DNA of 64,000 nt, taken from IMG/VR virus record IMGVR_UViG_3300021478_000015, positions 64,001 through 128,000 of that record; one strand, 5' to 3'. Both the position numbers and the translations under genes were made by a program. Position 1 is the first letter of the stretch. Each line of letters starts with the position of its first letter. Positions 25,513-45,796 of this stretch are shown here, piece after piece. The DNA comes from a virus. Below the pieces are notes generated by a model. The model was given only the letters and a program-made list of their open reading frames with translations, was not told the origin of the DNA and did not search any database.

Positions 25513-26283
25513 TCAGGTCACCGGGGCGGTGAACACCGAGTTCCAGGTCTGGGGACCTACCAGGCCGTCCGCGGTGAGATGCTTCTCGCGTTGGTACTGA
25601 ACGGTGACCTGCTCACTCTGCGGCCCGAATATGCCATCGACACCAATGGCCCAGCCCCGGTTTTTCATCTGCTGCTGGTACGTCCGCACATCGGGCACCG
25701 TCGAGTTGTGGGTGCGGCCAAAGTAGTCCACATGCAGCGGCGGCACCCCCGCTGGAGGCTTGGGGGCCGGGGTGGGAGGCTTGGGATCAGGAGCAGGGGC
25801 GCTGCCCTGAGCGGCGGTCAGGATGGCTTGGCGGCGGTTCTTGCGGAGATCACCAGGGCAACCGGTGTGACCACCCCAGGCCGCCCCGCCCATCCCATGC
25901 CATCCGAAGCCGCGAACACCGGGGCTCTCAGCCAGGCTGTAGGGCCAGCCGTAGACATCGTGGCCCCACTTGTACAGCCGGGCCAGGGTGGCCTCAGCGG
26001 CGGCGGTGAGGGGCTCGGTGGTGTAGCCCTCACTCTCGATGGAGTTGTAGGTGCTGTTGCCCTGGGCTTGTGCCCAGGCCGACACGTTGGCGTCCACGTA
26101 CTGCTCCAGCACGCCGGTCTTGGACACCCACCACGTCGAGGAGGCCCCGGCCCCAGGATTGTTGAACCATCCGGCCAGCGAGTTGTTGCCCTGCTGGACG
26201 TGCAGCACCAGGCCCAGGTGGCTGGCCATGACCCCGCCATGGCCGGACACCGGCTTCCATACTGCGAACGGGCAGACGGTCAT
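25513..26283 (-). CDS. N-acetylmuramoyl-L-alanine amidase (amidase_2) with peptidoglycan-binding domain; endolysin
   Basis: GLVLHV...S.WWV...G.LEQYV...AWAQ..GN....SIE.EG...GWH...HTGCPG; Pro linker; VDGIFGPQS...ADGLVGPQTW. Confidence 0.85.
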   Translation of the reverse strand: MTVCPFAVWKPVSGHGGVMASHLGLVLHVQQGNNSLAGWFNNPGAGASSTWWVSKTGVLEQYVDANVSAWAQAQGNSTYNSIESEGYTTEPLTAAAEATLARLYKWGHDVYGWPYSLAESPGVRGFGWHGMGGAAWGGHTGCPGDLRKNRRQAILTAAQGSAPAPDPKPPTPAPKPPAGVPPLHVDYFGRTHNSTVPDVRTYQQQMKNRGWAIGVDGIFGPQSEQVTVQYQREKHLTADGLVGPQTWNSVFTAPVT

Positions 26284-26450: not shown

Positions 26451-26714
26451 TTGACCATGACCGATGAGGTGCGGCGCAAGCCGCTGGATATCGCTTTAGC
26501 CGAAGAGGCGGCCTGGCGTCAAGGCCTGCTGGTAGTGGGCAACATCAAGAAGGCGTATTTGCGAGAGCGCAAGCATCTGCTTGATGTAGGATTCCCAGCC
26601 GGACACGCCCTGTGTGAGGACTTCGACAAGGGGGCCGAGAAGTGGGCCGCTATCGAGACCAACATGCGACGGGACTACCATAAGCACATCGAGGAGAATC
26701 AGATCCGGATATGA
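26451..26714 (+). CDS. Hypothetical protein
   Basis: First gene of a coupled chain. Confidence 0.5.
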   Translation: MTMTDEVRRKPLDIALAEEAAWRQGLLVVGNIKKAYLRERKHLLDVGFPAGHALCEDFDKGAEKWAAIETNMRRDYHKHIEENQIRI

Positions 26715-26839
26715 GCGAGGAGGAGCCCGAGGAGATGACGTACTTCCTCGGCTGTACCTGTGACCATGACCCGGAGGAGCACGGCTGGGGTCATTGTGAG
26801 GTGGATGGATGTCCTTGCGAGGGAGGGTGGGAGGAATGA
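26711..26839 (+). CDS. 42-aa Cys/His microprotein (not in ORF track)
   Basis: CTCDHDPEEHGWGHCEVDGCPC; ATGA-coupled at both ends. Confidence 0.5.
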   Translation: MSEEEPEEMTYFLGCTCDHDPEEHGWGHCEVDGCPCEGGWEE

Positions 26840-26978: not shown

Positions 26979-27299
26979 ATGAGCACCTGGGATGAGGTCA
27001 TCGGCCTGGTCAACGCCCAGGCCATGGACGAGGGCTTGTGGTTTCGGGCTGAGACCGTGGCGGAGGCCTACCTGCAGCGAGAGCTACGCCGCCTGCACGC
27101 CGCCGTTGAGGGCCTCTTAGAGGACCGTCGTCACATCGTTCAGTTTGAGGAGGACGACTGGATGATCGCCCATCCCCTGGCCGAGCGCCTGGAGGGATCC
27201 TTGCTCGACTGCCCTATGCGCTGGGATGAGCCCGACCCAGGCTTACGAGGCCGGTACTGGCTGCACGATGACGGCACCCTGGGCGAGGAGATCCCATGA
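26979..27299 (+). CDS. Hypothetical protein
   Basis: QA.DEGLWF.AET..EAYLQ.ELRRLH motif; ATGA-coupled. Confidence 0.55.
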   Translation: MSTWDEVIGLVNAQAMDEGLWFRAETVAEAYLQRELRRLHAAVEGLLEDRRHIVQFEEDDWMIAHPLAERLEGSLLDCPMRWDEPDPGLRGRYWLHDDGTLGEEIP

Positions 27300-27559
27300 G
27301 CTACGGCTGCCGGGACTTGGACGACGGCCGTCACCTGTGCGTAGTCGATCTCACCTATGGGCGCGCCCGGCTGCTGATCTCCTCCAACGCCTGTCACCTC
27401 ACCTATGACGACGCCTACTGATATGACCTCCCTGTGGTTGCGGTCGCAACCATGCATCAATGGGATGGCCAAGGTGAGCCCACTGGCTGGATGCGAAACC
27501 CCATGACCGGACGACGACGGCCGGACGGGGATCCGGAGCGGGAGTACGTGGACCCATGA
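27296..27559 (+). CDS. 87-codon gene with in-frame TGA at codon 42 (selenocysteine candidate or nonsense allele)
   Basis: Frame fills the gap exactly with ATGA overlaps at both ends; reads YDDAY*YD...WDGQGEPTGWMRNPMTGRRRPDGDP; SECIS-like hairpin follows the TGA. Confidence 0.55.
27433..27454 (+). promoter_or_regulatory. SECIS-like stem-loop
   Basis: TGGTTGC-GGTC-GCAACCA plus two G-U pairs; loop begins 21 nt after TGA 27419-21. Confidence 0.4.
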
Positions 27560-27759
27560 GCGCAGCATCATCGACCACGGGGCGTGGATCGCTGGTTGTA
27601 GAGCTACCTGAACCGGTGCAGGTGGCTGACGGTAGATGGCTGGTGGCCGTATGGATCAATGCCCGGCGTCCCGACATCACCGCGGCGAGAGCGGTCCCGA
27701 TGTACGTTCCGAATCGAGATCAGTGGGTGCCCTCTATCGACAGATCCGAGGCATCATGA
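27556..27759 (+). CDS. Hypothetical protein
   Basis: ATGA-coupled. Confidence 0.45.
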   Translation: MSAASSTTGRGSLVVELPEPVQVADGRWLVAVWINARRPDITAARAVPMYVPNRDQWVPSIDRSEAS

Positions 27760-27944
27760 GCGTGTTGCGACCGACTGCCTCCGAGCGCAAGCACCGAGCC
27801 TTCATCCCCCGAGGTGGTGACCGATCGACGTGGACCAGCCTGGACTACGCCTATGAGATCACCGATGCCACCGACACTGGGCACCTGGGCTGGGCCGAGT
27901 TGCTCATGATGGAGTTCCGCCGCAAGTTCCTGGCCAAGCCATGA
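27756..27944 (+). CDS. Hypothetical protein
   Basis: ATGA-coupled. Confidence 0.5.
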   Translation: MSVLRPTASERKHRAFIPRGGDRSTWTSLDYAYEITDATDTGHLGWAELLMMEFRRKFLAKP

Positions 27945-28165
27945 GCGACGAGGACCAGGACCTGCTGCGCTACGGCCCCTGCGAGCACTGTGGCGGCCCG
28001 AGGACGGTCAAGGTCACCGAGCACCCAGACGGCATCAGTCTGGTCTACGAGCTTGGATGCCCGACTTGCGACCAAGAGGGCCAGGAGCGCCGTAAGGCCA
28101 GCGACCTCGAACCCTGGGAACGCTACGCCGGGGAGCGCTTCGGGCTACCGGATCCCTGGGCATGA
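27941..28165 (+). CDS. Small Zn-ribbon protein
   Basis: CEHC...CPTC. Confidence 0.55.
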   Translation: MSDEDQDLLRYGPCEHCGGPRTVKVTEHPDGISLVYELGCPTCDQEGQERRKASDLEPWERYAGERFGLPDPWA

Positions 28166-28320
28166 TCCACGTCGAGGGGAAGGTGGTCATCCGCTACGAG
28201 GTGTGGTGTGACCAGTGCAGTTGGACCGGTGAGTATGCTGATTCGAGAGAAGCTCATGATCGTGGCAACGACCATGAGAAGCATCATCGACAGGCCCGTG
28301 CTGCCCGAGGTGAGAAGTGA
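28162..28320 (+). CDS. 52-aa C2H2-like microprotein (not in ORF track)
   Basis: CDQCSW...DHEKHH; overlap-coupled. Confidence 0.5.
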   Translation: MIHVEGKVVIRYEVWCDQCSWTGEYADSREAHDRGNDHEKHHRQARAARGEK

Positions 28321-28697
28321 TTTTGGCTCCGCATCACATCTTCGGTCCGGCCAGGGAGGGCCACATCACCTGCCTGGCCTGCCATCACACCTACACCGTG
28401 GAGACGGCCTGGCAGGCCCTGGTCGATCCCTGCATCGACGGTGTACCCACCGGCATCACCGAGATCGAGGCCCTGGAGCGTTACCGGGCGGCGCTCAACG
28501 ACACGCAAGGGAGTGTTGTGAGCAAGGACGAGCTACGGGAGCAGATGGCCATGCTGGTGGCCGGGCGTATGGCCCTGCACTGGCCCCTGCAGTGCCCCAT
28601 GTGCCCCGATCGATCGGCCATGGCCATCGACATCGTGGACTCTCTGCTGGCCAGCCGCGACCTGATCATCACCGGCATCGAGAGCCCTCATGACTGA
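28317..28697 (+). CDS. Zn-binding hypothetical protein
   Basis: CLAC...CPMC; GTGA overlap. Confidence 0.55.
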   Translation: MILAPHHIFGPAREGHITCLACHHTYTVETAWQALVDPCIDGVPTGITEIEALERYRAALNDTQGSVVSKDELREQMAMLVAGRMALHWPLQCPMCPDRSAMAIDIVDSLLASRDLIITGIESPHD

Positions 28698-28834
28698 CGC
28701 CGATCCAGTCGAACTACCCGACGCCAGGATCAAGTTCTGGGACTGCCCGGAGGATCACCCCAGAGAGCCCCAGAGGGTCCGTATCGTCTGGGACGGGGAT
28801 CTGGCCACCTGCCTGGACTGCGGGCGCACCAACC

Positions 28835-29023
28835 GTGACTGAGGACTCCTGGGCCAAGTGGCTGGCCCACATCGCCACCTGTGACGCCGCCCACTGCCAG
28901 AACGCCAACGCCCTGCGGCTGGTGCTGGTGGGAGCCGGGCTCGACCCCCGCACCTTCAAGATCGAATCCAAGACGGACGGCACTCATGTGATCAAGACCT
29001 GGGCGGACAGCCATGACCTCTGA
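28835..29023 (+). CDS. Hypothetical protein
   Basis: HIATCDAAHC motif. Confidence 0.45.
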   Translation: MTEDSWAKWLAHIATCDAAHCQNANALRLVLVGAGLDPRTFKIESKTDGTHVIKTWADSHDL

Positions 29024-29207
29024 GCAGATCGTTGACGCCATCATCTCCGACCTGGCCGGTCGCAGTGCGATCGGCAAGGCCTGGGAGCAGATCGATGCTG
29101 ACATCCAGGCTGAGATCCGCGCTATCTGGCTCGGTTATATCGAGGACAAGAGCGAGGTCTTCTTTGGCTCGCAGGGAGATGACCCCCATGGCATCGACCC
29201 GCCATGA
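29013..29207 (+). CDS. Hypothetical protein
   Basis: IVD.II.DL..R..IG.AW.QID.DIQ.EI...W motif. Confidence 0.55.
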   Translation: MTSEQIVDAIISDLAGRSAIGKAWEQIDADIQAEIRAIWLGYIEDKSEVFFGSQGDDPHGIDPP

Positions 29208-29608
29208 GTAGCGCCCCCTGCTCGACCTGCCCTTGGCGCAAGTCCTCGACCCTGGGTGGCTACGACATACCGGGCTTCGGCCTGGATCTCATGAGAGGCC
29301 TCTCCTGCACCGTCTCCGCCCGTGGGATCCGCACCGATGAGTTCCGGCCCACTATGGCCTGCCACGGCTCCTCAGAGGACCACAACCAGATCTGCCGGGG
29401 CTACGCCTATGTCGAGGGCTGGTCCAACCTCAGCTTCCGGCTGATGGCCATGCGGGGAGAGATCGTCCTGGACGAGCTTGACCGGGCCTGCGGGGGGCTC
29501 GACCTGTGGGACAACTTCTGGGAGATGCTAGACGCCTACGAGGAAGTGAGGAGGAATGATAACTCCACAGGATTTTCATCTTCAAGATCTGTTGGTCCTG
29601 TCTGTTGA
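29204..29608 (+). CDS. DUF6283-like Cys-rich protein
   Basis: PCSTCPWRK...MACH......ICRGY. Confidence 0.55.
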   Translation: MSSAPCSTCPWRKSSTLGGYDIPGFGLDLMRGLSCTVSARGIRTDEFRPTMACHGSSEDHNQICRGYAYVEGWSNLSFRLMAMRGEIVLDELDRACGGLDLWDNFWEMLDAYEEVRRNDNSTGFSSSRSVGPVC

Positions 29609-34030: not shown

Positions 34031-37000
34031 ATGAAGCACTACGCCGCCCTGGAGATCATCAGCGCTGAGTACGGCGATCAGCACTCCCTCCGTCACCTGG
34101 CCCATCGGGCGGACTTCACCTACGCGCCACGTCCCGGCTACCTGTACGTCCGCTCCAGGGCCATCAGTTCACGCACGAATGACAACTTCGATGACTTCCC
34201 GGCCGAGGAGATAGAGAAGGGCTACCGGTCGTTCATCGGGAAGCCAGTGTTCGTTAACCATGTCAACGAGGATCACAAGCGTGCTCGGGGTGTGGTCATC
34301 GATGCCGCCCTGCATCATGATGTGAATCCCAATGGTTCGCCGGATACATGGTGTGAAGTATTGATGGAAGTAGACGCACTACGCTTTCCGAAGTTGGCTC
34401 AAGCGATCGTCCAAGGTCATATCGATCGTACTTCCATGGGTGTTGACGTGGAGTACTCGATCTGTAGTGCCTGTGGTAATAAGGCCACGAACCCGGCGGA
34501 GTATTGTCGTCATATTCCGCAGATGAAGGGCTCGAAGATCGTCCGGCGGAATGCCGCCACCAACCGGCCAGAAGAGACTCTCATCTTTGAGACCTGCTAT
34601 GGGCTGAGCTTCTTCGAGAACTCGTTACTGGTCGAGGATCCCGCCGATCCCACGGCCTACTTCCTGGGCGTGGACGATCGTGGCCTCAGGATGGCCCAGA
34701 AGACCGCACATAGGAAGCTATGTCGGCAATGTCTCACTTCGTCATCATGTGCCGCGTACGGATGTGGGCGTAGCTCAGAGGGCCTGGGAGCTTTCGTGGC
34801 CAGCACACCGGGCAACTTCGACAAGATCCCTCAGCACCACTGGGATTACCTGTCCGATCTGGTGGACCGAGTGGGCCAGCGCGAGAAGACCCCCAAGGTG
34901 TGCTGGCAGGTGTTCTCGGCCATCGATCACAAGCTGGGCTACCCCCAGGAGTCCGGCTACTACCGGGGTGAGGGCCACTACTGGAATCGCCTGCCGGACG
35001 GCTCCATCCTCGATGCCAGCCATGATCAGTTCGAGGAGGACGACGACCCGGTGCGGATCTTCGCCCCTGGTGATCCCGAGCACGGCCATTTTAAGACGGC
35101 TGTGCGCCACCAGGAGGGCCTGGGAGCCTTCGTGGCGGCCCATGACCTGGACGAGGCTGTGACCTCCTTCAAGCCCTATGCCGAAGAGCAAGGTTGGCAT
35201 GATCCGACTTGCGTAGGTGGGCAATGCGACGTGGCCTCGACGGAGTTCGCCCAGCACCTCCATGAGCACGGCATCCCCCATGAGGTGGTGACCCACTATC
35301 CCGAGCCGGGTGGCCCCATGAGCCACAGCGTGGTCGAGGTCGGGGACCACACAGTGGACTGGACGGCTCGCCAGTTTGACCCCAAGGCGGACTTTCCTCA
35401 CATCGAGCCCCATCACGTCACCCGCAGTCGCTGGCACCGCACCGAGCCCTACTACGGTGAGATCGAGTATGGCAAGGATTACCGAGAGGCGTCCTTAGCG
35501 GGTGATAAGTCCTGGATCAAAGAGGAGCATGACTACGAGGGTCGTCATGGGGAGCGCCGTCACATCACCCGCACCATGACGGGAGCATTGCCCACCCATC
35601 TGGTCCAGCACTTGATGGGTGTCAAGGGCGAGATACCCGGTGAGCATCGTAATAAGCAAGGTCAGCAATGGGAGGACTTCAAGTCCGACATCGCTCAGAA
35701 CGGCATCAAGAACCCCATCTTTATCACCCAGGATCCGGGGGAGCGACCCAAGATCTCCGAGGGCAATCACCGCCGGGACGCGGCGGTGGAGCTTGGCCAT
35801 CCCTACGTGCCGGTGGAGATGCGCTACTTCGGTCACGCCGAGCAGGATCCCGACAACCTGGAGGACAAGGCCCAGGCCCACTTCGATCGGGAGAACCAGA
35901 TCCGCAGCTTGGGTACTCGCAGGCTCGCCCGTTACGAGCCCGAGCCCGACGCTCCCGAGGAGGGTGAGTACGAGAAGGAGCCCGATCCTTCGGGTTTCTT
36001 CCCCAACGGCATCGCCACCCGTTGGCGACAAGCGCATAAGCCGCTGGTGGCGGACGCCTTGCACGCCTGGAAGGGCGACCCCGTCAACGCTCTGACTCAC
36101 TGGCACCACGAACTCAACGACGATCCCCAGCCTGACTCGGGCTCGGGCAAGCAGATGCGAGCCCAGTCCGGGGCTCTGCGCTGGGAACTTCAAAATAACT
36201 CCAAGACGTTCGGACGCAAGCTCTATCGAGGAGTGCCCACCGCCCAGGACCGCCTGCCCAAGGTGGGCGACATCATCGACCATGACGACCGGCCGCGGGG
36301 CTACTCTTCCAACCGGGCCACGGCTTGGGCCTTCGCCCGCAAGTCGGGCTCCGACCACCTGCGCCGTCCCCTGGTCCCGGTCACCTACCAGACCGCGCCG
36401 GGCACCCAAGGCCTGCGGATCAAGGACTACGGCACCGGCAGCGGTCTTGATCAGTCCGAGCAGGAGTACGTCCTCCATGGCCAGCATCAGGTCACCCACG
36501 TCGAGTCCACCGACAAGGGCCTCCATGTGCGGACCCGACCGTTACAGAGCTACACGGCCGGGCTCAGAGGCTTTGTGGCCGCACGGGGCGATGACCCTGG
36601 CCTGGATGAGGCCCTGGACCAGTTGGGAGAGATCCTCTCCCGCCCTTCCCATGCTCCTCCCCCGAAGATCCTGCCCGAGGCCCATGAGATGTACGGCGGC
36701 TACATCCATGAGCACCCTTCCGGTCACCTGCACGTCTCTGAGGCCCCTGGAGCGCTGTCTAAGCCCCTGGAGAAGCTCTACCGCATCGTTCACCCTAAGG
36801 AGTGGGAGGAGGCCCAGCAGAAGGGCTACCTGCAGTCCAACACGGCCTTCTCGCCGGGTTACACCAGGGCCTCGGCCCAGCCGGACGAACGCTGGCGGCG
36901 GCAATCGGCTGATCCCTCCGAGATTGCCCCCAAGGGCCACACCATAGAGATCGACTACCACCCCGATGACAACTGGCATGCCTCGGCCGAGGGCTACGCC

Positions 37001-40000
37001 GCCACCCGCTCGAAGATCCCGCTCAGCCGGGTCCGCAAGATGGCCAAGACCGAGGTCTCGGTGGCCGGGCTAGCAGTACTGGCCGCCGATACGGGCCGGG
37101 TGCTGATGCTGCAGCGCGCCAACCATGATGTCAAGGATCCGGCTGCGGGCACCTGGGAGTTCCCCGGTGGTCATCTCAACCCCGACGAAGCGCCAGTCGA
37201 GGGGGCTATACGGGAGTGGAAGGAAGAGCTTGGCTGCAAGCTGCCTGCCGGGCATGTCCAGGGCCATTGGATCTCGAAGAAGATCTATCAAGGCTTCGTC
37301 TATGTCATCGAGCATGAGGACGAGGTTGACATAAACCACGATCATGAGAATCGCCAGGTCCTGAACCCCGATGATCCTGATGGGGATGAGATCGAGGTGG
37401 CGGCCTGGTTCGAGCCCAAGGACCTGCCCGACATGCCTGCCCTGCGCGACGAGGTCAAGAGCGGCACCGACTGGTCCAAGCTCAAGCTCAAGAAGACGGC
37501 CGGACTCGAAGCATTCCTGGCCGCCTACTACCATGTCAGCCCGCACTGGTTGCCATCAGGGACCAAGCTCACCCCCGGCGGGGGCCGTCGCAACTTCGGG
37601 GGCCGGGCCGACAGTGACGCCGTGTACATGGCTGGGTCAGAGGGCGAGGCCGAGCAGTGGGGCAACGCCATGGCCCAGGACGAGCCCACTGGCCATCTGC
37701 ACATCTACGAGGTCCAGCCTCACGGCCCGGTCACCCACAGTCAGGGTCATGTGACCATGGACGACTTCCACGATGTGATCGGCCAGCACGCTGCCCCAGC
37801 GGCCACCATCGTCCGCCATCACTACTCCTACGATCCCGAGAGCGGGGAGGCCTTCTATCCCCATGAGGCCGGGCTTGGAGCCTTGGCGGCGGCCGAACCC
37901 ACCTTCTACCACGGGACCAGCGACGATCTAGAGCCGGGTAGCCAGCTTTCGGTGGAGGAGGCCACTCGGCGGCAACCAGAGGTGGCCAAGGCCTTAGAGG
38001 ATCGGGGTGGTCAGCACATCAGCTTCACCACCGACTACCAGCACGCCCAGATGTACGCCGGGGTCCGCGCCCAGACCCGCGGCGGGACGCCTCGGGTGTA
38101 TCGGGTGCAACCAACCGGGGGCTACGAGCCCAACCCCGCCGACGAGAAGTGGCGGGAGGGCAAGCCGCCCATGTCCTTCAGGACCAAGGAGCCGGTCACC
38201 GTCCTGGGGGAGGCCACGCCACCGAAGCGGCGACGGAAGCAGAGCGGACTGATGGCCTTTGTGGCTGTCAATGCTTCGGATGAGGTCCCGCCTGAGCCTG
38301 GTCTCTCGCCTATCCCTGAGGGCCACGTCCGGCTGTTCCACCAGACCGGCCCGAAGCACGTCGAGTCCATCCGTCAGAACGGGCTGACCATGGAGCATGC
38401 TCGGGCCACCGGAGGGCCGGTCGGGGTGTGGGCCAGCCACGGCACCCGCTTCTATCCCGGCCAGGACCACGCCACGGTGGAGTTCCACGTCCCCTACAAG
38501 GAGCTACAGGACACCGCCGGAGGCCAGTCGCCCCACCGCCATCAGCCCCAGGAGGACTGGGAGCAGTCCAACCACCACACCCTGGTCATCCCCCGCTCGA
38601 TCAAGCCCCATGAGATCACCGCCATCCATGAGCCCTGGCACGATCGCTATCGGTACTTCCACAACGAGGGCATGACCGACGAGGTCAAGCAGGGTGGCTT
38701 CGACAACCTGAAGGACATCCCTGACTACGGCCGGGCCATCGACAAGATCAAGAGCGAGGCCAGCCTGCACCTGGCCATGAACACCGAGGACGAGGTACCC
38801 CCTCGACTGGGCACCGCGCCCATCCCGGAGGGCCATGTGCGCCTCTATCACCACACTTGGTCCAAGAACGTGCCCAGCATCCGCGAGCACGGTCTCCTGG
38901 CCGAGATGGGAAAAGGTGACAGTGGCAAGGGCTACGGCAATGAGCTATCGGCCGGGGTATGGGCGGCTAGTCAGCATCCCGAGCCTGATCCCCAGAGCGA
39001 CCGGCATGTGATCGAGTTCCACGCCCACCCCTCCGAGATCGATGTCAACGGGCCTTCTCCTGGCCAGGATGTCCATAAGTGGCAGCAAGGTGATCACAAC
39101 GTCTTGATGCGGGGCTCGGTCAAGCCCGAGAACATCCTGGCTATCCATGCCCCCTGGCATACCGCTTATCATCAGATCAACGATGATCCCCGCGACCGGG
39201 AGGATGTCAAGAACGGCAAGCTGGACTGGGTCCATAACGATCCCTCCATGCCGGGCGTGAGCAAGGCCGTTCACAAGATCCAGGCCGAGGGGGCGGCCCG
39301 GCCCAACATCGGCAAGGGCTGGTGGCTCACCCCCGAGGGCAAGAAGATCGGCGTGTACGACCACTATGAGACGACGCCTGGCATGGCTCGTCAGATGATC
39401 CGCCCGCACATGGCGGAGAGTGGTCAGGTTAGGGTCCGTAGTTTCAACAATCAACTCAACGTGCAAACGGCCCGTCCCTTCACCGATAAGCAGCGTCAGA
39501 GTTTGCTGATGGATGCGGACCGACATAGCCGCATGTTTGTGGACGTGCTCCACCCCGATACTGAGGAGTCCATCCACTCCGAGTCCGGGGGTCCCGAAGA
39601 AGCCGATCGCATGCTGGCCCGAGCCCATCGCGCTGCCATCCCCCATGAGGCCAAGAGGGCGGTGCAGGGTGCTCGAAAGGTCACTCAGGTGCCCCTGCAA
39701 CACATCCTCACTCACACCGAGCCCACCGACATGGCTAGCTACGGCCACACCTGGCCGGACGCCTTCCGCGACATCGAGGAGAACCATGAGGACTTCGCCC
39801 CCAAGCATTGGGGCAAGTTCCTCGATCACGTCCAGGCTCACGGCATCCAGACTCCGGTGGTGATCCTGCATGACGGGGAGCGCCAGAAGCTGTTCTCCGG
39901 CCATCACCGGGTGTGGGCCGCCCACCGTTTGGGCCTCAGCCATGTCCCCGCCTATCACACCGACGATCCCTCCGAGGCCTATGACTTGATGGACGAGCAG

Positions 40001-43000
40001 GCCGCTCATGAAAGCGATTGGCACAAGCAGGCTGGGCTATCGACCTTCATAGCCATCGAGGCTCACCCTGACAGCTACCATACGCTGTATCGAGGATTGC
40101 ACTTCGGTGAGATTGAGCCACACAATATCGATGACTTCCACAAGAATCCCCAGAAGTACATGGGCCATGAGAAGAATGTTGGGATCCATTGGACCGACAA
40201 TCCGGACTCGGCCTACAACTTTGCCACCGATAGAGATCCCGAAGGCTGGGCGCATGAGGGAGATCCCGATGAGGAGCAGGGACATCTCCACGGCGTGATC
40301 CTGGAGGGAAGAGTCCATCCTCGCCACATCATCGACCCGGAGTCTGAGGAGGGCCAGGGCTATGCCATGTCCGACGCCATCCTGGGCCATGAGCATCCCG
40401 AGAACGAGGTGACGGTGCGCGGCGATGCCCGTGTGCATGTCCACAAGATCCACGCCATCACCGAGCACCCCGAGACCGGTGAGAATCGTTGGACCACCCA
40501 CAACGTCTCAGAGCATCACTTGGCCGTTCAATATGAAGCCCTCGGTCCTTATCGCAAGATCAACGTCGAAGACATCAAGCGCAACATGATCATTCGTCCC
40601 AGTTGGGGGCAACATGATTGGACCCGTACTACTGGTGATGCTCAGCATGATCCCGATCATCCTGACGACACTTCGCGTGAGTTTCCCGATGAGGATGATC
40701 CCGATCACGTCAAGATGTACGTGATCCCCATTCACCGGACCTTCACGCCCCATCAGCCTGAGGGGACTCCCTATCACGTCCGGGTTCGCAAGCAGGCCGG
40801 ATTGGAGGGCTTCATAGCGGCCCAGGGACCTACCTACTACCAGGGGCGGCGCAGCGATGGCAGCCGGGCTCAGATCGGCGGAGAGCGGGGTCAGGGCTGG
40901 GACGAGCATATGTTCGTGTCCCACGATCCCGAGGTGGCCCGCCTGTACGCCGGGCATCAGGGCAGCGTCCACGCCATCCACATGGCCCCCGACACCAAGG
41001 TGCTCAAGATCGACCGGGCCAATGGCCCCACCTGGAAGCGCTACGCCAAGGGCACCGAGGGCCAGGGCCTGCTGGACGAGGCCAAGACCATCGTGGCCCG
41101 TGCCGGAGGAGAGGGCTACCACGTTGTGGAGTTCCACCGGCCGCACGATTACATCGGCCACGTCATCCTGGACCGATCCAAGGTTCAGGGCGAGGAGCAT
41201 ATGGCCGCCGGTCACGGTGATCTCATAGGACGAGGATTACACCTCAATCTCTCCGATGAAGACGGCGATCATGAGCTAGCCAATAAGATCTGGGATCATC
41301 ATCCTGATGCGGCTCGACATCTCCTCCACACTATCCATGACATAGGCGGTGGTCACGCCGGGGCTTGGTGGGGAAGACTTAATCCTCAACATCGTGAGTT
41401 CAGCACCCATGAGGTCAAGGATTACGCCGAAGGAGGCGAAGGCGGCGAGGAGTTGATGAACAAGTGGCATCCTGAGGCCCATGATCCCGAGGAAGGCAAT
41501 CACGGTTTGCACGGTGGTGTGGATGTCGCCTTGATCGCTCACAACACCCATGGCTGGGACCCCGAGAAGAATCCTCTGGTGGCGGGCGGGCTCATGGGTA
41601 GCTCCTACATCCCCGAGGGCCAGGGCAAGGACATGCCCCTGCACTCGATCCATGTCAACGACGGTAGGGGCTGGCGACGGCTGCCTCACCCTCCTGGGCT
41701 GACCGTGACCGCGGCTGACGATGACGAGGATTGGCGGGGCCTGCACCAGCCCTCGATGGGGCCGCCTATCCACAACCTGCTGGAGAAGGACGAGGACGGC
41801 GGCCAGCTAGCCCCTGACGACATCTACACCCACATGCACTACTACACCGATGGCGAGGCCAACTGGGACAACGAGTCCCACGCCGCTATCCGCAAGGCCC
41901 GTGGTGACATGCCGCTACACCAGCGCCCGGCTGCACCGGCCAAGATGTTCTCGGAGCGAGCCGGTGGGGGCGAGATGAGCCCGGCCCGAGAAGCTGAAAG
42001 CGATGAGGCCTTCGCCCAGCGCCAGCAACGGCGCAAAGACGGTGAGCACCACGTCACCATCTACCGGGCTGCCCCCAAGGGGCTCAAGTCCATCGGGCCA
42101 GGGGATTGGGTCACGCCCTCGCCCAGCTACGCCCGCGACCACGCCCGTCAGGCCAGCGACCCCAAGAAGGACTGGCCGGTCTACAAGGCCTCGGTCCCGG
42201 CCAAGCATGTGCGCTGGGCCGGGGACTCCCTCAACGAGTTCGGATATTCGGGGCCTGCGGTTAAGCCCACTTACCACACCAGGGGTGGCACCCAGGCCGA
42301 GCGTCTGGCCGCATTCGTGGTCGAGGCTGATCAGCCTTACGCCGGGGGCTACCAGTTCAAGTTCCGCAAGGCCCAACCCAACTCCATGGAGGCTCAGGCC
42401 GATAAGACGCTGAACTATCACCGCCTGGATGCCTTCCATGAGAACACCCAGGATCTTACCCAGGGTCGCGGTGGTCATGCAGGCTTTCTACTCTGGCATC
42501 ACAAGACCGGTGAGATCGGCAGTATCGAGACCCTGCCCGAGCATCAGCGTCGAGGGCTGGCCACCGAGATGCTGGACCAGGCCCGCCAGATCTCCGCCAC
42601 CACCCGAGGGGTCAAGCCCCCGAAGCACTCCAATCAGCGCACCGACGCCGGGGAGGCCTGGGCACGCTCGACTGGCGACCGGCTGCCTCGCCGGGTGCAA
42701 TCCCTGGCCGCCTTCGTGGCTGCCCTGGACCCCTCCGAGATCTCTGAGACCTCACCGGAGGAGTTCCACCGCAACTTCTCCCGGTCCATCGCCGGTAGCC
42801 CCTTCGAGCGTCATGTCACCAACCACACCCCGGAGGAGATCCGCTCCGAGGGTATGAAGCCGCTTACTATCAACCATGGTACGAGTGGTGTCCTGATCCA
42901 TGATCACGGGGATGGTAGGATAGAGCCGACAGGACTGTACAACGATCGGGAGAAAGGAGTGAAGGGTGCCGGTATAGATCTTCTCAAGCATGCCGTTGAG

Positions 43001-43381
43001 CATCACGGGGCGAACTACTTTGAGTGTTACGGCCCGCAACTGCCGAAGATGTACGAGAAGCTCGGGTTCCATACCACCGAGAAGTATCCGTTCGATCCCT
43101 CCCAGGCCCATCCGGACTGGGATTACGAGCAGCACAACCACCCTGATTACCACATCATGAGACCGAACGATCCCCAGCAGAAGACGGCCGCGCTCCCGGC
43201 TGACGTGATCAGTCTTTCCGACGTGGACTGGGACGACCCGGCGGCGGTGGCCGCGTTCAAGGCCCAGACCGAAGCTGAGCTTGACGCTGAGGGCGGCCAG
43301 GACTGGGTCCACATGACGCCCGAGCAGAAGGAAGCCTCCTGGCAGGCAGCCCTGGCTCAACTCGGGGTCCATCTCCCCTAG
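34031..43381 (+). CDS. Capsid maturation protease fused to a polyvalent effector array (3116 aa)
   Basis: N-terminal 220 aa: RAISSR.NDNFD.FP.EEI...F.GKPVFVNH...RTSMG.DV..S.CSACGN...FFENSLLVE.PADPTA (cluster-C-type protease). Then papain-like x2, ParB/Srx x2, ART-fold x about 8, Nudix, GNAT-like x2, separated by repeated GLxxF(V/I/L)A linkers. Confidence 0.8.
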   Translation: MKHYAALEIISAEYGDQHSLRHLAHRADFTYAPRPGYLYVRSRAISSRTNDNFDDFPAEEIEKGYRSFIGKPVFVNHVNEDHKRARGVVIDAALHHDVNPNGSPDTWCEVLMEVDALRFPKLAQAIVQGHIDRTSMGVDVEYSICSACGNKATNPAEYCRHIPQMKGSKIVRRNAATNRPEETLIFETCYGLSFFENSLLVEDPADPTAYFLGVDDRGLRMAQKTAHRKLCRQCLTSSSCAAYGCGRSSEGLGAFVASTPGNFDKIPQHHWDYLSDLVDRVGQREKTPKVCWQVFSAIDHKLGYPQESGYYRGEGHYWNRLPDGSILDASHDQFEEDDDPVRIFAPGDPEHGHFKTAVRHQEGLGAFVAAHDLDEAVTSFKPYAEEQGWHDPTCVGGQCDVASTEFAQHLHEHGIPHEVVTHYPEPGGPMSHSVVEVGDHTVDWTARQFDPKADFPHIEPHHVTRSRWHRTEPYYGEIEYGKDYREASLAGDKSWIKEEHDYEGRHGERRHITRTMTGALPTHLVQHLMGVKGEIPGEHRNKQGQQWEDFKSDIAQNGIKNPIFITQDPGERPKISEGNHRRDAAVELGHPYVPVEMRYFGHAEQDPDNLEDKAQAHFDRENQIRSLGTRRLARYEPEPDAPEEGEYEKEPDPSGFFPNGIATRWRQAHKPLVADALHAWKGDPVNALTHWHHELNDDPQPDSGSGKQMRAQSGALRWELQNNSKTFGRKLYRGVPTAQDRLPKVGDIIDHDDRPRGYSSNRATAWAFARKSGSDHLRRPLVPVTYQTAPGTQGLRIKDYGTGSGLDQSEQEYVLHGQHQVTHVESTDKGLHVRTRPLQSYTAGLRGFVAARGDDPGLDEALDQLGEILSRPSHAPPPKILPEAHEMYGGYIHEHPSGHLHVSEAPGALSKPLEKLYRIVHPKEWEEAQQKGYLQSNTAFSPGYTRASAQPDERWRRQSADPSEIAPKGHTIEIDYHPDDNWHASAEGYAATRSKIPLSRVRKMAKTEVSVAGLAVLAADTGRVLMLQRANHDVKDPAAGTWEFPGGHLNPDEAPVEGAIREWKEELGCKLPAGHVQGHWISKKIYQGFVYVIEHEDEVDINHDHENRQVLNPDDPDGDEIEVAAWFEPKDLPDMPALRDEVKSGTDWSKLKLKKTAGLEAFLAAYYHVSPHWLPSGTKLTPGGGRRNFGGRADSDAVYMAGSEGEAEQWGNAMAQDEPTGHLHIYEVQPHGPVTHSQGHVTMDDFHDVIGQHAAPAATIVRHHYSYDPESGEAFYPHEAGLGALAAAEPTFYHGTSDDLEPGSQLSVEEATRRQPEVAKALEDRGGQHISFTTDYQHAQMYAGVRAQTRGGTPRVYRVQPTGGYEPNPADEKWREGKPPMSFRTKEPVTVLGEATPPKRRRKQSGLMAFVAVNASDEVPPEPGLSPIPEGHVRLFHQTGPKHVESIRQNGLTMEHARATGGPVGVWASHGTRFYPGQDHATVEFHVPYKELQDTAGGQSPHRHQPQEDWEQSNHHTLVIPRSIKPHEITAIHEPWHDRYRYFHNEGMTDEVKQGGFDNLKDIPDYGRAIDKIKSEASLHLAMNTEDEVPPRLGTAPIPEGHVRLYHHTWSKNVPSIREHGLLAEMGKGDSGKGYGNELSAGVWAASQHPEPDPQSDRHVIEFHAHPSEIDVNGPSPGQDVHKWQQGDHNVLMRGSVKPENILAIHAPWHTAYHQINDDPRDREDVKNGKLDWVHNDPSMPGVSKAVHKIQAEGAARPNIGKGWWLTPEGKKIGVYDHYETTPGMARQMIRPHMAESGQVRVRSFNNQLNVQTARPFTDKQRQSLLMDADRHSRMFVDVLHPDTEESIHSESGGPEEADRMLARAHRAAIPHEAKRAVQGARKVTQVPLQHILTHTEPTDMASYGHTWPDAFRDIEENHEDFAPKHWGKFLDHVQAHGIQTPVVILHDGERQKLFSGHHRVWAAHRLGLSHVPAYHTDDPSEAYDLMDEQAAHESDWHKQAGLSTFIAIEAHPDSYHTLYRGLHFGEIEPHNIDDFHKNPQKYMGHEKNVGIHWTDNPDSAYNFATDRDPEGWAHEGDPDEEQGHLHGVILEGRVHPRHIIDPESEEGQGYAMSDAILGHEHPENEVTVRGDARVHVHKIHAITEHPETGENRWTTHNVSEHHLAVQYEALGPYRKINVEDIKRNMIIRPSWGQHDWTRTTGDAQHDPDHPDDTSREFPDEDDPDHVKMYVIPIHRTFTPHQPEGTPYHVRVRKQAGLEGFIAAQGPTYYQGRRSDGSRAQIGGERGQGWDEHMFVSHDPEVARLYAGHQGSVHAIHMAPDTKVLKIDRANGPTWKRYAKGTEGQGLLDEAKTIVARAGGEGYHVVEFHRPHDYIGHVILDRSKVQGEEHMAAGHGDLIGRGLHLNLSDEDGDHELANKIWDHHPDAARHLLHTIHDIGGGHAGAWWGRLNPQHREFSTHEVKDYAEGGEGGEELMNKWHPEAHDPEEGNHGLHGGVDVALIAHNTHGWDPEKNPLVAGGLMGSSYIPEGQGKDMPLHSIHVNDGRGWRRLPHPPGLTVTAADDDEDWRGLHQPSMGPPIHNLLEKDEDGGQLAPDDIYTHMHYYTDGEANWDNESHAAIRKARGDMPLHQRPAAPAKMFSERAGGGEMSPAREAESDEAFAQRQQRRKDGEHHVTIYRAAPKGLKSIGPGDWVTPSPSYARDHARQASDPKKDWPVYKASVPAKHVRWAGDSLNEFGYSGPAVKPTYHTRGGTQAERLAAFVVEADQPYAGGYQFKFRKAQPNSMEAQADKTLNYHRLDAFHENTQDLTQGRGGHAGFLLWHHKTGEIGSIETLPEHQRRGLATEMLDQARQISATTRGVKPPKHSNQRTDAGEAWARSTGDRLPRRVQSLAAFVAALDPSEISETSPEEFHRNFSRSIAGSPFERHVTNHTPEEIRSEGMKPLTINHGTSGVLIHDHGDGRIEPTGLYNDREKGVKGAGIDLLKHAVEHHGANYFECYGPQLPKMYEKLGFHTTEKYPFDPSQAHPDWDYEQHNHPDYHIMRPNDPQQKTAALPADVISLSDVDWDDPAAVAAFKAQTEAELDAEGGQDWVHMTPEQKEASWQAALAQLGVHLP

Positions 43382-43612: not shown

Positions 43613-45796
43613 ATGTCGGTCTTCACCGCCAAGGAGCAGATCTCGGTCCCGCCCGAGGTGGACACCATGCGGGAGGAGATCTGCCCGGTCTGCGGGTCGG
43701 ATGACTCCTACGTGGGCGACAAGTGCTCGGTGTGCGGCTTCGAGAAGCCCCCGTCGATCTTCATGGACCCCGACACCTCTCTGGCTCAGAACGTCAACCT
43801 GCGCCAGGAGGACCAGGAGGACCAGAACGACGATGGGGCCGGAGAGCTTCAGTGCCCCAACTGCGGTGAGACCTTCCCCTCCGCCGAGGCCCTGAACGCG
43901 GCCGGGGATCCCCATCTGGCCCCCGCCGCCCAGACCATCCCGGCCGAGCAGGACCTGGAGGTCCCAGAAGGGGCGGAGGAGGAGCCTGAGCCCCTCCAGA
44001 GCCCGGACGACAACCAGATGGCCCCGCCGCCCCCAGCGGGCCAGGAGGGGCCTCCTGAGCCCCCTGAGAACGAAGATGAGCAAGTCCCGCCCGGCCAAGA
44101 GGAGGATGAGGATGAGCAGCCTCCGCCTGAGGGCGCAGTCCCGCCGGAGGAGGAGCCCGAGGAGGAGGGTGGCCCACCTGCTGAGCTAGCCGGACCCCCT
44201 GAGCCCGGTGGAGCCCCCGAGGAGGAGTCTCCCGAGCAGGGCCAGGTCGAGCAGGTCGATCCCGAGGCCATGGCCGAGCAGCAGTACGCCGCCGACCAGG
44301 AGGGCATGCAGCAGACCGGCTACGAGGAGGGCGACATCTGCCCCAACTGTGGCCAGGGCCTGCTCCAGCCCCTCGGCACCGAGAACGCCGTGCCGGAGCC
44401 GGGTCAACCGCCCGAGGTCGAGGGCTCTGACGAGATGCCCCAGGGCGGTCCTCGACCCTTCCCGCCCGGCGTGCCCGGCGATGACGAGCCCGAGCCCGAG
44501 GACGAAGAGGAGGAGGGTCCTCCCTCAGCGGCTGCTCCGGACCAGGAGGGCGGCGAAGCCGAAGACGAGCAGGAAGACGACGAAGACGAAGAGGACGAAG
44601 ACGGGGACCAGCCTCCCTGGCTGAACAAGAAGAAATCAGCAGTTCTTTTTAACTACCAAACCAGCAGCATCGAAAGGAGCCTCAGTACGATGCCTACCCG
44701 CCCCCGCCGCCCAGTGCAGCGCCAAGCTACCACTCAGACCCAGCCCGAGCCGACGCCGCGTAGCTCGGTCCGTACCGCCCTGCACGCCTCGCTCAACGCC
44801 CAGGCCAACGTCCTGCGCCGTATGACCGCCGCCTGCCAGCAGGAGCGTCTCCTGCGCCTGGCCGCCGAGGCCCGCATCTTTACCCTGGAGCGGCAGATGT
44901 TCCGCTTCGCCACCTTGGCCGGAGCCGACGCTGACCCCGAGCTTCGAGGCATCAACGAGGAGGGCTATCGGGTCCATGCCTCCTTGATGGCTCGCGCCGC
45001 CTCCTTGCACACCGCCGACCAGAGGGATCCAGCCCAGCCGGTGCCCGAGGGCGCACCCGAGGCCCCCATCGTCACCGAGCAGCAGGCGGCCGAGCCCGCG
45101 GCGCGCACCGACGTGACCCAGCTTGGAGCCACCCCGGTGACCGATGTGTCGGCCGACGCCACCATCGCCGTGGACCAGCCCTACGGCACCGAGGCCTTCG
45201 AGCCCATGAACCTCAACGAGGTGGACGTGACCGCACCCGTACAGAACACCCAGGGGCACCTGCCGCCTGAGCAAACCATCATCCCCGTCGAGGTGCGTGT
45301 CGGTGACCCCGACGATCCCCAGCCCTCCTACGGCTGGACCCTTGATGGTGGCAATCCGTCCGGCCAGACCGGAGGGTCGGTGGGATCCGGGCAGCCCACT
45401 GCAGGCGCGCCGGGCTCGCCTCCGGGGGTCATGCCGGGCACCAGGGCATCCCGTAACGACGGCCAGGTGTCCCTGGGTGCGCTGCGCCTGGCTCGTCTTC
45501 GCATCCAGGCTGGTATTGCCCCGGCCAACCAGGACGACCTGTCCATCGCCGCGAGCATCCAGGACAACCCGGATATGACCGTCGAGGCCGTCAACACCGA
45601 GATCAAGACCCTGACCCAGGTGCTCTCGGTCCAGGTCCCCAACGGCCGGGTGGCCTCGGCCAACCGTCGCCTGGTCCCTCGCTCGGCTACCACCCAGAGC
45701 CCGGCTCCATCCCTGGCTCCCACCGAGATGGAAGGCCCCATCCGCGCCCATGCCTCCACCGGGCAAGTAACCGCGGATGAGATGCTCTTCGAGTAG
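43613..45796 (+). CDS. Head scaffolding-like protein (acidic, Pro-rich, Zn ribbons)
   Basis: VPPEVDTMREEICPVCG...CSVCG, CPNCG twice; lies between protease and capsid genes; C-terminal ALRLARLRIQAG helix; start reassigned to 43613. Confidence 0.6.
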   Translation: MSVFTAKEQISVPPEVDTMREEICPVCGSDDSYVGDKCSVCGFEKPPSIFMDPDTSLAQNVNLRQEDQEDQNDDGAGELQCPNCGETFPSAEALNAAGDPHLAPAAQTIPAEQDLEVPEGAEEEPEPLQSPDDNQMAPPPPAGQEGPPEPPENEDEQVPPGQEEDEDEQPPPEGAVPPEEEPEEEGGPPAELAGPPEPGGAPEEESPEQGQVEQVDPEAMAEQQYAADQEGMQQTGYEEGDICPNCGQGLLQPLGTENAVPEPGQPPEVEGSDEMPQGGPRPFPPGVPGDDEPEPEDEEEEGPPSAAAPDQEGGEAEDEQEDDEDEEDEDGDQPPWLNKKKSAVLFNYQTSSIERSLSTMPTRPRRPVQRQATTQTQPEPTPRSSVRTALHASLNAQANVLRRMTAACQQERLLRLAAEARIFTLERQMFRFATLAGADADPELRGINEEGYRVHASLMARAASLHTADQRDPAQPVPEGAPEAPIVTEQQAAEPAARTDVTQLGATPVTDVSADATIAVDQPYGTEAFEPMNLNEVDVTAPVQNTQGHLPPEQTIIPVEVRVGDPDDPQPSYGWTLDGGNPSGQTGGSVGSGQPTAGAPGSPPGVMPGTRASRNDGQVSLGALRLARLRIQAGIAPANQDDLSIAASIQDNPDMTVEAVNTEIKTLTQVLSVQVPNGRVASANRRLVPRSATTQSPAPSLAPTEMEGPIRAHASTGQVTADEMLFE

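Follow-up and report, generated by a model that had tools for sequence, protein, structure and literature searches.

An in-frame UGA followed by a SECIS-like hairpin probably encodes selenocysteine in a widespread family of small phage proteins

Can a bacteriophage gene that is interrupted by a UGA codon be expressed as a selenoprotein gene? The question is raised by a small gene (27296-27559) in a 64,000-nucleotide stretch of phage DNA, here called the window, which comprises bases 64001-128000 of the IMG/VR virus record IMGVR_UViG_3300021478_000015 (156,983 bp, 62% GC). A first-pass annotation, made from the letters alone, had noticed an 87-codon open reading frame (ORF) that fills a gap in an operon, overlaps the genes on either side, and contains a TGA at 27419-21; downstream of this TGA it saw a hairpin resembling a bacterial selenocysteine insertion sequence (SECIS), and it proposed that selenocysteine (Sec) is inserted. 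All of these coordinates held, and the comparison with relatives described below supports the proposal. The gene probably encodes an 87-residue phage protein in which codon 42, a UGA, is read as Sec. It would belong to a widespread family of small virus-specific proteins that are probably made as selenoproteins, using a phage-borne SECIS and hijacking the host SelB and tRNA-Sec. A selenoprotein is the most likely reading because the UGA is kept at a column where relatives carry Cys, and a covarying hairpin of bacterial type always follows it.

The recoded ORF starts with the ATG at 27296, ends with the TGA at 27557-59 and reads MSYG...YDDAY*YDLPVVAVAT...EREYVDP*, asterisks denoting stop codons (Table 1). 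ATGA overlaps with the neighbouring genes are present at both ends (27296-99 and 27556-59). Since the ORF itself terminates with TGA, this codon is an ordinary stop in the phage genome. The core of the hairpin, UGGUUGC-GGUC-GCAACCA, was confirmed at 27435-27452, with its loop beginning 21 nt after the UGA, and can be extended to 8-9 bp with G.U pairs. Within the loop, taking the U of the UGA as nt 1, G27443 and U27444 fall at nt 25 and 26, between the complementary bases G27442 and C27445. The folding energy was -11.6 kcal/mol (ViennaRNA), giving a z-score of -1.41, and 21 of 200 shuffled sequences folded equally well. An Rfam scan of the window at gathering thresholds returned no match. The loose constraints published for bacterial SECIS (bSECIS) elements were satisfied by 8% of all TGA triplets in the phage genome, and a loose scan that accepted any hairpin of at least 6 bp was uninformative, with 17% of TGAs positive. 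Because a lone stem of this kind is thermodynamically ordinary and the loose constraints are commonly satisfied, the significance of the element comes from comparison and not from the single hairpin.

The read-through protein had 41 full-length homologs among called proteins, with alignments that covered 92-97% of its length and ran across the TGA. Their consensus, YxDxWCY....A..A...WDG...EPTGWxRHPxTGRRRPDGDPxxEY, agrees with the family motif that the first-pass annotation had given. The residue at the TGA column was C in 29 of these proteins, H in 3, W, E, D and Q in 2 each, and S in 1. Homologous DNA was then collected, because called proteins are biased against internal stops. This gave 27 loci from IMG/VR, 2 from species genomes and 80 from metagenomes, and the column could be mapped in 98 of them. 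The codon at this position was TGA in 62 loci, TGC in 22, TGT in 6, GAC in 4, TAT in 3 and GAG in 1; TAA and TAG were never found. Cys codons therefore account for 28 of the 36 non-TGA loci, as had been predicted for codon 42, and across all the loci recovered the presumed Sec alleles outnumber the Cys alleles by 62 to 28. The phages with the family come from soil and other metagenomes. The pairing of Sec with Cys among homologs is the classic pattern of selenoproteins (PMC13188914). One homolog with an apparent Trp (P0002) was discarded as such, having a TGA that the gene caller had read with table 4 (TGA = Trp). Another (P0005; L143:1325-1597) has a true TGG at the Sec column. The only isolates that carry the family are phages of Caulobacter and Sinorhizobium, all with Cys alleles; a search of isolated phages with a TGA-allele query found nothing more, and no isolated phage with DNA nearly identical to the window was found.

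The 56 distinct proteins with a TGA allele have a median identity of 48% (range 28-99%), and their loci range from 39 to 74% GC. Downstream of the TGA, the median dN/dS (ratio of nonsynonymous to synonymous substitution rates) between TGA alleles was 0.16, and dN was lower than dS in 142 of 142 usable pairs, so that this part of the frame is evidently under purifying selection. It is 45 or 47 codons long in nearly all of the 56 genes, which terminate with TGA (27), TAG (22) or TAA (7). The UGA is best understood as an old, maintained and site-specific recoding, and not as an error, a pseudogene or a reassigned code, because the TGA is kept across 28-99% identity, the frame beyond it is under purifying selection, and TGA also serves as a terminal stop. 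In a maximum-likelihood tree of 85 distinct proteins the TGA state was strongly clustered, requiring 7 changes compared with 24 for shuffled labels, and 18 Cys alleles formed a separate clade (Shimodaira-Hasegawa-like approximate likelihood ratio test, 91).

Because the interval from the TGA to the hairpin is free of indels, every allele fits a single register, and the pair counts given here are fixed-register counts; the alignment from covariance model R1 (A5), which had also drawn in Cys alleles through similarity of their coding sequence, was left out of them. A stem of 5 bp or more that closes a loop of 3-5 nt occurs in 53 of the 55 distinct TGA alleles, GU at nt 25-26 counted from the UGA in 51, and the two together in 50. 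The combination of stem and GU at +25/26 was found in none of the 29 distinct non-TGA alleles; the hairpin thus occurs together with TGA and is missing from the Cys alleles. Two classes of hairpin were distinguished, a tetraloop class (N-GU-N, encoding the peptide AAVAA) and a pentaloop class (CGUGN, encoding ELAVSE), in which different codon positions are paired. All 33 tetraloop and all 17 pentaloop alleles form the five inner pairs. Pair 21:30, which joins two third codon positions, is formed in all 33 alleles of the former class by a variety of combinations (GC 13, CG 7, UA 7, AU 2, UG 2, GU 2). The bases N24:N27 on either side of the GU, also at synonymous third positions, are G:C in 23, C:G in 15 and A:U in 11 of the 51 GU alleles. 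Val (GUN) is found at the loop codon in 51 of 55 TGA alleles, compared with 4 of 29 others. The covariation score of the 11-sequence alignment A4 was 0.488, compared with 0.19 for shuffles, none of 500 of which reached the observed value, and at most 0.17 for slid controls. RNAalifold predicted the same stem.

The hairpin of the TGG allele P0005 is half-decayed (GGAGGC-AGUU-GCCGCC, with one mismatch), and this allele looks like a recent one-step exit from UGA. Two metagenome contigs, L044 and L046, carry Asp (GAC) alleles that group with TGA alleles in the tree, and since they nevertheless have no hairpin, a replacement of Sec by Asp is suggested. Alleles that departed from TGA have, to judge from these cases, lost the hairpin or are losing it.

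When the pattern derived from the family was applied strictly, only 7 of 5,093 TGAs in the phage genome matched. Over all family loci there were 60 matches among 11,004 TGAs, and 55 of these 60 were the in-frame TGA of the family; the other TGAs of these loci, about 10,940, account for the remaining 5 matches. The strict scan of the genome gave no second convincing candidate. The only other TGA in the window with an N-GU-N' hairpin of at least 6 bp and frames open on both sides, at position 44823, was rejected: the 743-codon ORF around it is read in a different frame, so that chance is the probable explanation.

The bSECIS model specifies a loop of 3-9 nt, a stem of 4-16 bp, a G in the first two loop positions, a distance of 16-37 nt from UGA to loop and an energy of -7.5 kcal/mol or lower (PMC13188914). 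Scored with our own bulge-free implementation of these constraints, the window element satisfies the model: its loop is GGUC, its stem has 9 bp, two of them G.U pairs, the spacing is 20 nt and the energy -10.5 kcal/mol. The constraints were passed by 32 of 55 TGA alleles and by 1 of 29 non-TGA alleles. The minimal SECIS of E. coli consists of 17 nt (nt 15-31), with the upper stem-loop 11 nt from the UGA, and SelB contacts its bulged U17 and the loop bases G23 and U24 (PMC8659212). The E. coli fdhF element that had been cited in the first-pass annotation proved to be exact, the 41-nt query matching fdhF at 100% identity in over 5,400 E. coli genomes. Its loop, G22-G23-U24-C25, is the GGUC of the window, with the GU flanked by a G:C pair in both, and its 5' arm GGUUGC (nt 15-20) is identical to that of the window.

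The phage gene shares further features with bacterial selenoprotein genes: the UGA stands where homologs have Cys, the stem-loop lies within the ORF directly 3' of it, the small apical loop starts with G, and the spacing falls within the 16-37 nt range. A dependence on host selA, selB, selC and selD would be shared as well if the UGA is read as Sec. It differs from them in being virus-borne and in belonging to a new protein family that is neither Trx-like nor a molybdopterin enzyme. The element would act in the manner of E. coli fdhF, but it does not follow the strict fdhF geometry, since the phage stem starts 13-15 nt from the UGA and its upper part is continuous over 5-9 bp.

Two TGA alleles were located in metagenome-assembled genomes (MAGs) of Chloroflexota, one from Thermomicrobiales (L029) and one from Chloroflexia (L030). 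A search of these MAGs for the Sec machinery found it complete in both: selB scored 316 and 313 bits (cut-off 242) and tRNA-Sec 70 and 65 bits (cut-off 47), all above curated cut-offs, and each MAG also has, likewise above the cut-offs, selA and a selD that itself carries a TGA. Allele L029 is on a 6.4-kb contig that is phage-like, as it carries ParB, helix-turn-helix and HNH genes. Allele L030 (L030:3001-3300, which is G002:C562 at a contig end; L148) is a decayed copy of the family that has kept the TGA and lost the helix/hairpin region by deletion, and its frame shifts ahead of GWHRQPPTGRRRPDGDP. It lies directly after genes for an ABC sugar transporter, RmlD and proline racemase, which link it physically to a bacterial chromosome, and because it adjoins such ordinary bacterial genes it looks like a prophage remnant.

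The selenoprotein genes of these MAGs offer a second comparison. Their FdnG-like genes (L155 and L156) read ...ARI-UGA-HS..., followed after 11 nt by GGUGCCC-GGUCU-GGGCGCC, and share the N-GU-N' core of the loop (GGUC) with the phage family; unlike the phage genes, they have the GU at +23/24 and a 5-nt loop, and they encode host metabolic enzymes. The selD genes (L135 and L136) contain one in-frame TGA each, with hairpin loops that differ from that of the phage and between the two MAGs. The isolated phages with Cys alleles infect Caulobacter vibrioides or Sinorhizobium, and Caulobacter gave no selA match in the control set. The occurrence of Cys alleles in Caulobacter phages fits the Sec hypothesis, in a small number of genomes.

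The phage itself appears to contribute nothing but the signal in its mRNA. The record was rated complete by CheckV, and no tRNA gene was found in the 157-kb genome; selA, selB, selD and tRNA-Sec were searched for and were all absent, which rules out Sec machinery or a suppressor tRNA of phage origin. The host would therefore have to supply selA, selB, selD and tRNA-Sec. In the mechanism that we propose, the hairpin begins 13-15 nt beyond the UGA and displays, at a distance of 25-26 nt, a G-U enclosed by a base pair. Host SelB carrying Sec-tRNA(Sec) would bind this loop as it binds a bacterial SECIS within an ORF and, competing with release factor 2, would bring Sec to the ribosome that has paused at the UGA. 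The major capsid protein of the window phage (46773-47765) is about 56% identical to the capsids of large phages of Mycobacterium, Gordonia and Rhodococcus (Myrna, Phabba, Skog and Finch), and on this ground the host is probably an actinobacterium.

The sequence gave few indications of what the protein does. It had no match in Pfam or PHROG; 10 of 42 relatives matched phrog_24748, which has no function assigned. An AlphaFold2 model built from a 42-sequence alignment (predicted local distance difference test score, pLDDT, 95.3; predicted template modelling score 0.85) comprises four beta-strands, a single helix (residues 46-55) and, at the C-terminus, an ordered arm with the invariant residues P62, G64, W65, R73 and R75. 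In the model, residue 42 lies in the strand 39-43, which contains the motif D-x-W-U/C-Y, just before the sole helix, and the hairpin RNA encodes the start of that helix. A Foldseek search of the PDB gave nothing at E <= 0.001, the best VIA-align match (Z 5.1) was not informative, BFVD returned only uncharacterised phage proteins, and a protein-atlas search with a Cys homolog returned only viral clusters without names. A classical two-thiol redox site is unlikely, because Asp, Glu, Tyr, His, Gln, Ser and Trp also occur at the column and a conserved partner Cys is lacking.

Several observations weigh against Sec insertion, or limit how far it can be generalized. The variability of the column in non-TGA relatives, which includes one true Trp, means that the fold can do without the residue, and a second conserved Cys with which a Sec could form a redox pair is lacking. 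Strict agreement with the bSECIS model is incomplete, as 23 of 55 TGA alleles, mostly of the AU-rich pentaloop class, miss the -7.5 kcal/mol criterion. The GU is at +25/26 in the phage family, compared with +23/24 in fdhF and in the FdnG-like genes of the MAGs, and the phage element has no conserved bulged U corresponding to U17 of E. coli. The tree is poorly resolved, and the TGA state could have had a single origin; the functional evidence therefore consists of long maintenance and covariation, not of repeated gains. The evidence from MAGs comes from two genomes, in one of which the allele is linked to the MAG by binning only and sits on a phage-like contig, while in the other it is decayed and has suffered a deletion. 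The Sec machinery was found in MAGs with other TGA alleles; for the host of the window phage it is a prediction.

The main rival, which we regard as unlikely, is a read-through that does not involve SelB, in which a ribosome slowed by the hairpin, or a release factor 2 hindered by it, lets a near-cognate tRNA (Trp or Cys) insert a standard residue. The UGA is clearly decoded and the hairpin required, yet neither fact names the inserted residue, and a relative with a true TGG, a site tolerant of several residues and Sec machinery seen only with other alleles are all compatible with such a mechanism. A roadblock, however, needs no sequence-specific loop, and here the GU and its covarying flank are kept at synonymous sites in 49 of 55 alleles. 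The loop moreover has the motif that SelB contacts in fdhF (PMC8659212) and that recurs in the FdnG-like genes of the MAGs. The stop is always TGA and the other alleles are mostly Cys (PMC13188914), and both MAGs that hold a TGA allele use Sec.

Insertion of Sec also accounts better for the data than programmed termination, in which the UGA would stop translation, the hairpin would have a regulatory or coupling role, and the C-terminal half would be made separately by re-initiation. This split-gene arrangement is improbable. The window does have a GTG 5 codons and an ATG 11 codons after the TGA, and both halves would be about 41-45 codons long. No restart codon is conserved after the TGA, however; 21 of 56 TGA alleles have no start codon at all within 14 codons, and in the others its position varies. 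The TGA falls inside a beta-strand of what the model (pLDDT 95) predicts to be a single compact domain, the Cys alleles are single uninterrupted ORFs, and a split gene leaves both the constancy of the TGA and the GU-specific loop unexplained.

An artefact or decay (sequencing error, recent nonsense mutation or pseudogene) or a code with TGA as a sense codon (table 4 or 25) is scarcely credible: although a single base separates TGA from TGC, TGT and TGG, and P0002 was called with table 4, an error in this assembly is irrelevant because 61 other loci carry the TGA, identities of 28-99% among these independent loci exclude copies of one contaminated assembly and, together with purifying selection on the downstream frame, also the nonsense mutation that had first been kept as an alternative, and TGA is the terminal codon both of the recoded gene and of the gene just upstream, as it is in 27 of 56 homologs, and the window, at 62% GC, has normal long ORFs under table 11.

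Table 1. Coordinates of the recoded gene, its proposed signals and the adjoining genes in the window
Feature	Position	Strand	Remarks
Upstream gene, DUF6085 match	26979..27299	+	Ends in a TGA that shares an ATGA with the start of the recoded ORF
Recoded ORF	27296..27559	+	87 codons (41 + UGA + 45) plus terminal TGA; small phage protein
In-frame UGA, codon 42, proposed Sec codon	27419..27421	+	Sole internal stop; context YDDAY*YDL
SECIS-like hairpin	27434..27453	+	8-bp minimum-energy stem: 7-bp Watson-Crick core (27435-41/27446-52) plus a G.U pair
Apical loop GGUC	27442..27445	+	First base is the 21st nt after the UGA
Terminal TGA of the recoded ORF	27557..27559	+	Overlaps the ATG of the next gene
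Downstream 67-codon gene	27556..27759	+	Translationally coupled to the recoded ORF via ATGA overlap

The operon around the recoded gene is a series of tiny, translationally coupled ORFs. Several of the small ORFs at 26711-26839, 27941-28165, 28162-28320 and 28690-28842 have CxxC or CxC pairs and the look of zinc ribbons, and a DUF6283 protein is encoded nearby at 29204-29608. None of 13 neighbouring window proteins recurs beside the family gene in 109 related loci, so the gene context gives no clue to function. Just upstream of the operon and on the opposite strand is an endolysin gene (25513-26283) with Amidase_2 and PG_binding_1 domains; in the 356-codon ORF that adjoins it, no LysB of the cutinase type was recognised. 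Further along the window, a single ORF of 3,116 codons extends from 34031 to 43381, 3.4 kb upstream of the capsid gene.

Decoding of stop codons is familiar in phages in another form, stop-codon reassignment, in which TGA or TAG is read as sense throughout the late genes by means of phage suppressor tRNAs. The two cases are alike in that a stop inside a phage ORF is decoded. Reassignment, however, is genome-wide and brought about by tRNAs, whereas here a single site in each gene is affected, TGA is still a normal stop, the signal is a local RNA element and there are no phage tRNAs. In the literature searched, viral selenoproteins have been reported only from two poxviruses, molluscum contagiosum virus (GPx1-like) and fowlpox virus (GPx4-like) (PMC8310308). 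Like the protein proposed here, these are encoded by the virus and rely on the host's Sec machinery, and the SECIS of fowlpox lies in the coding region (PMC8310308). The poxviruses are, however, viruses of eukaryotes that have captured cellular glutathione peroxidase genes with a SECIS of eukaryotic type (PMC8310308), whereas the phage element would be a bacterial, SelB-type SECIS in a virus-specific protein family. Phages and viruses go entirely unmentioned in a 2026 review of the prokaryotic selenoproteome (PMC13188914), and our literature searches found no paper on a phage-encoded selenoprotein.

If the reading of the UGA as Sec is correct, phages would exploit the most specialised decoding pathway of their hosts, and the use of selenocysteine would be a regular trait of bacteriophages. 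The family would be a new one among selenoproteins, with a single Sec and no partner Cys, and its hairpins would offer dozens of natural variants of a compact SECIS, about 20 nt long and with an N-GU-N' loop, for studies of SelB recognition. A systematic annotation error would also be exposed, in which such genes are split, missed or assigned the wrong code, as P0002 was, and a TGA allele would serve as a marker of a phage whose host uses Sec. For the phage, whether the full-length protein and the product of the coupled downstream gene are made might then be tied to the selenium status of the cell that it infects.

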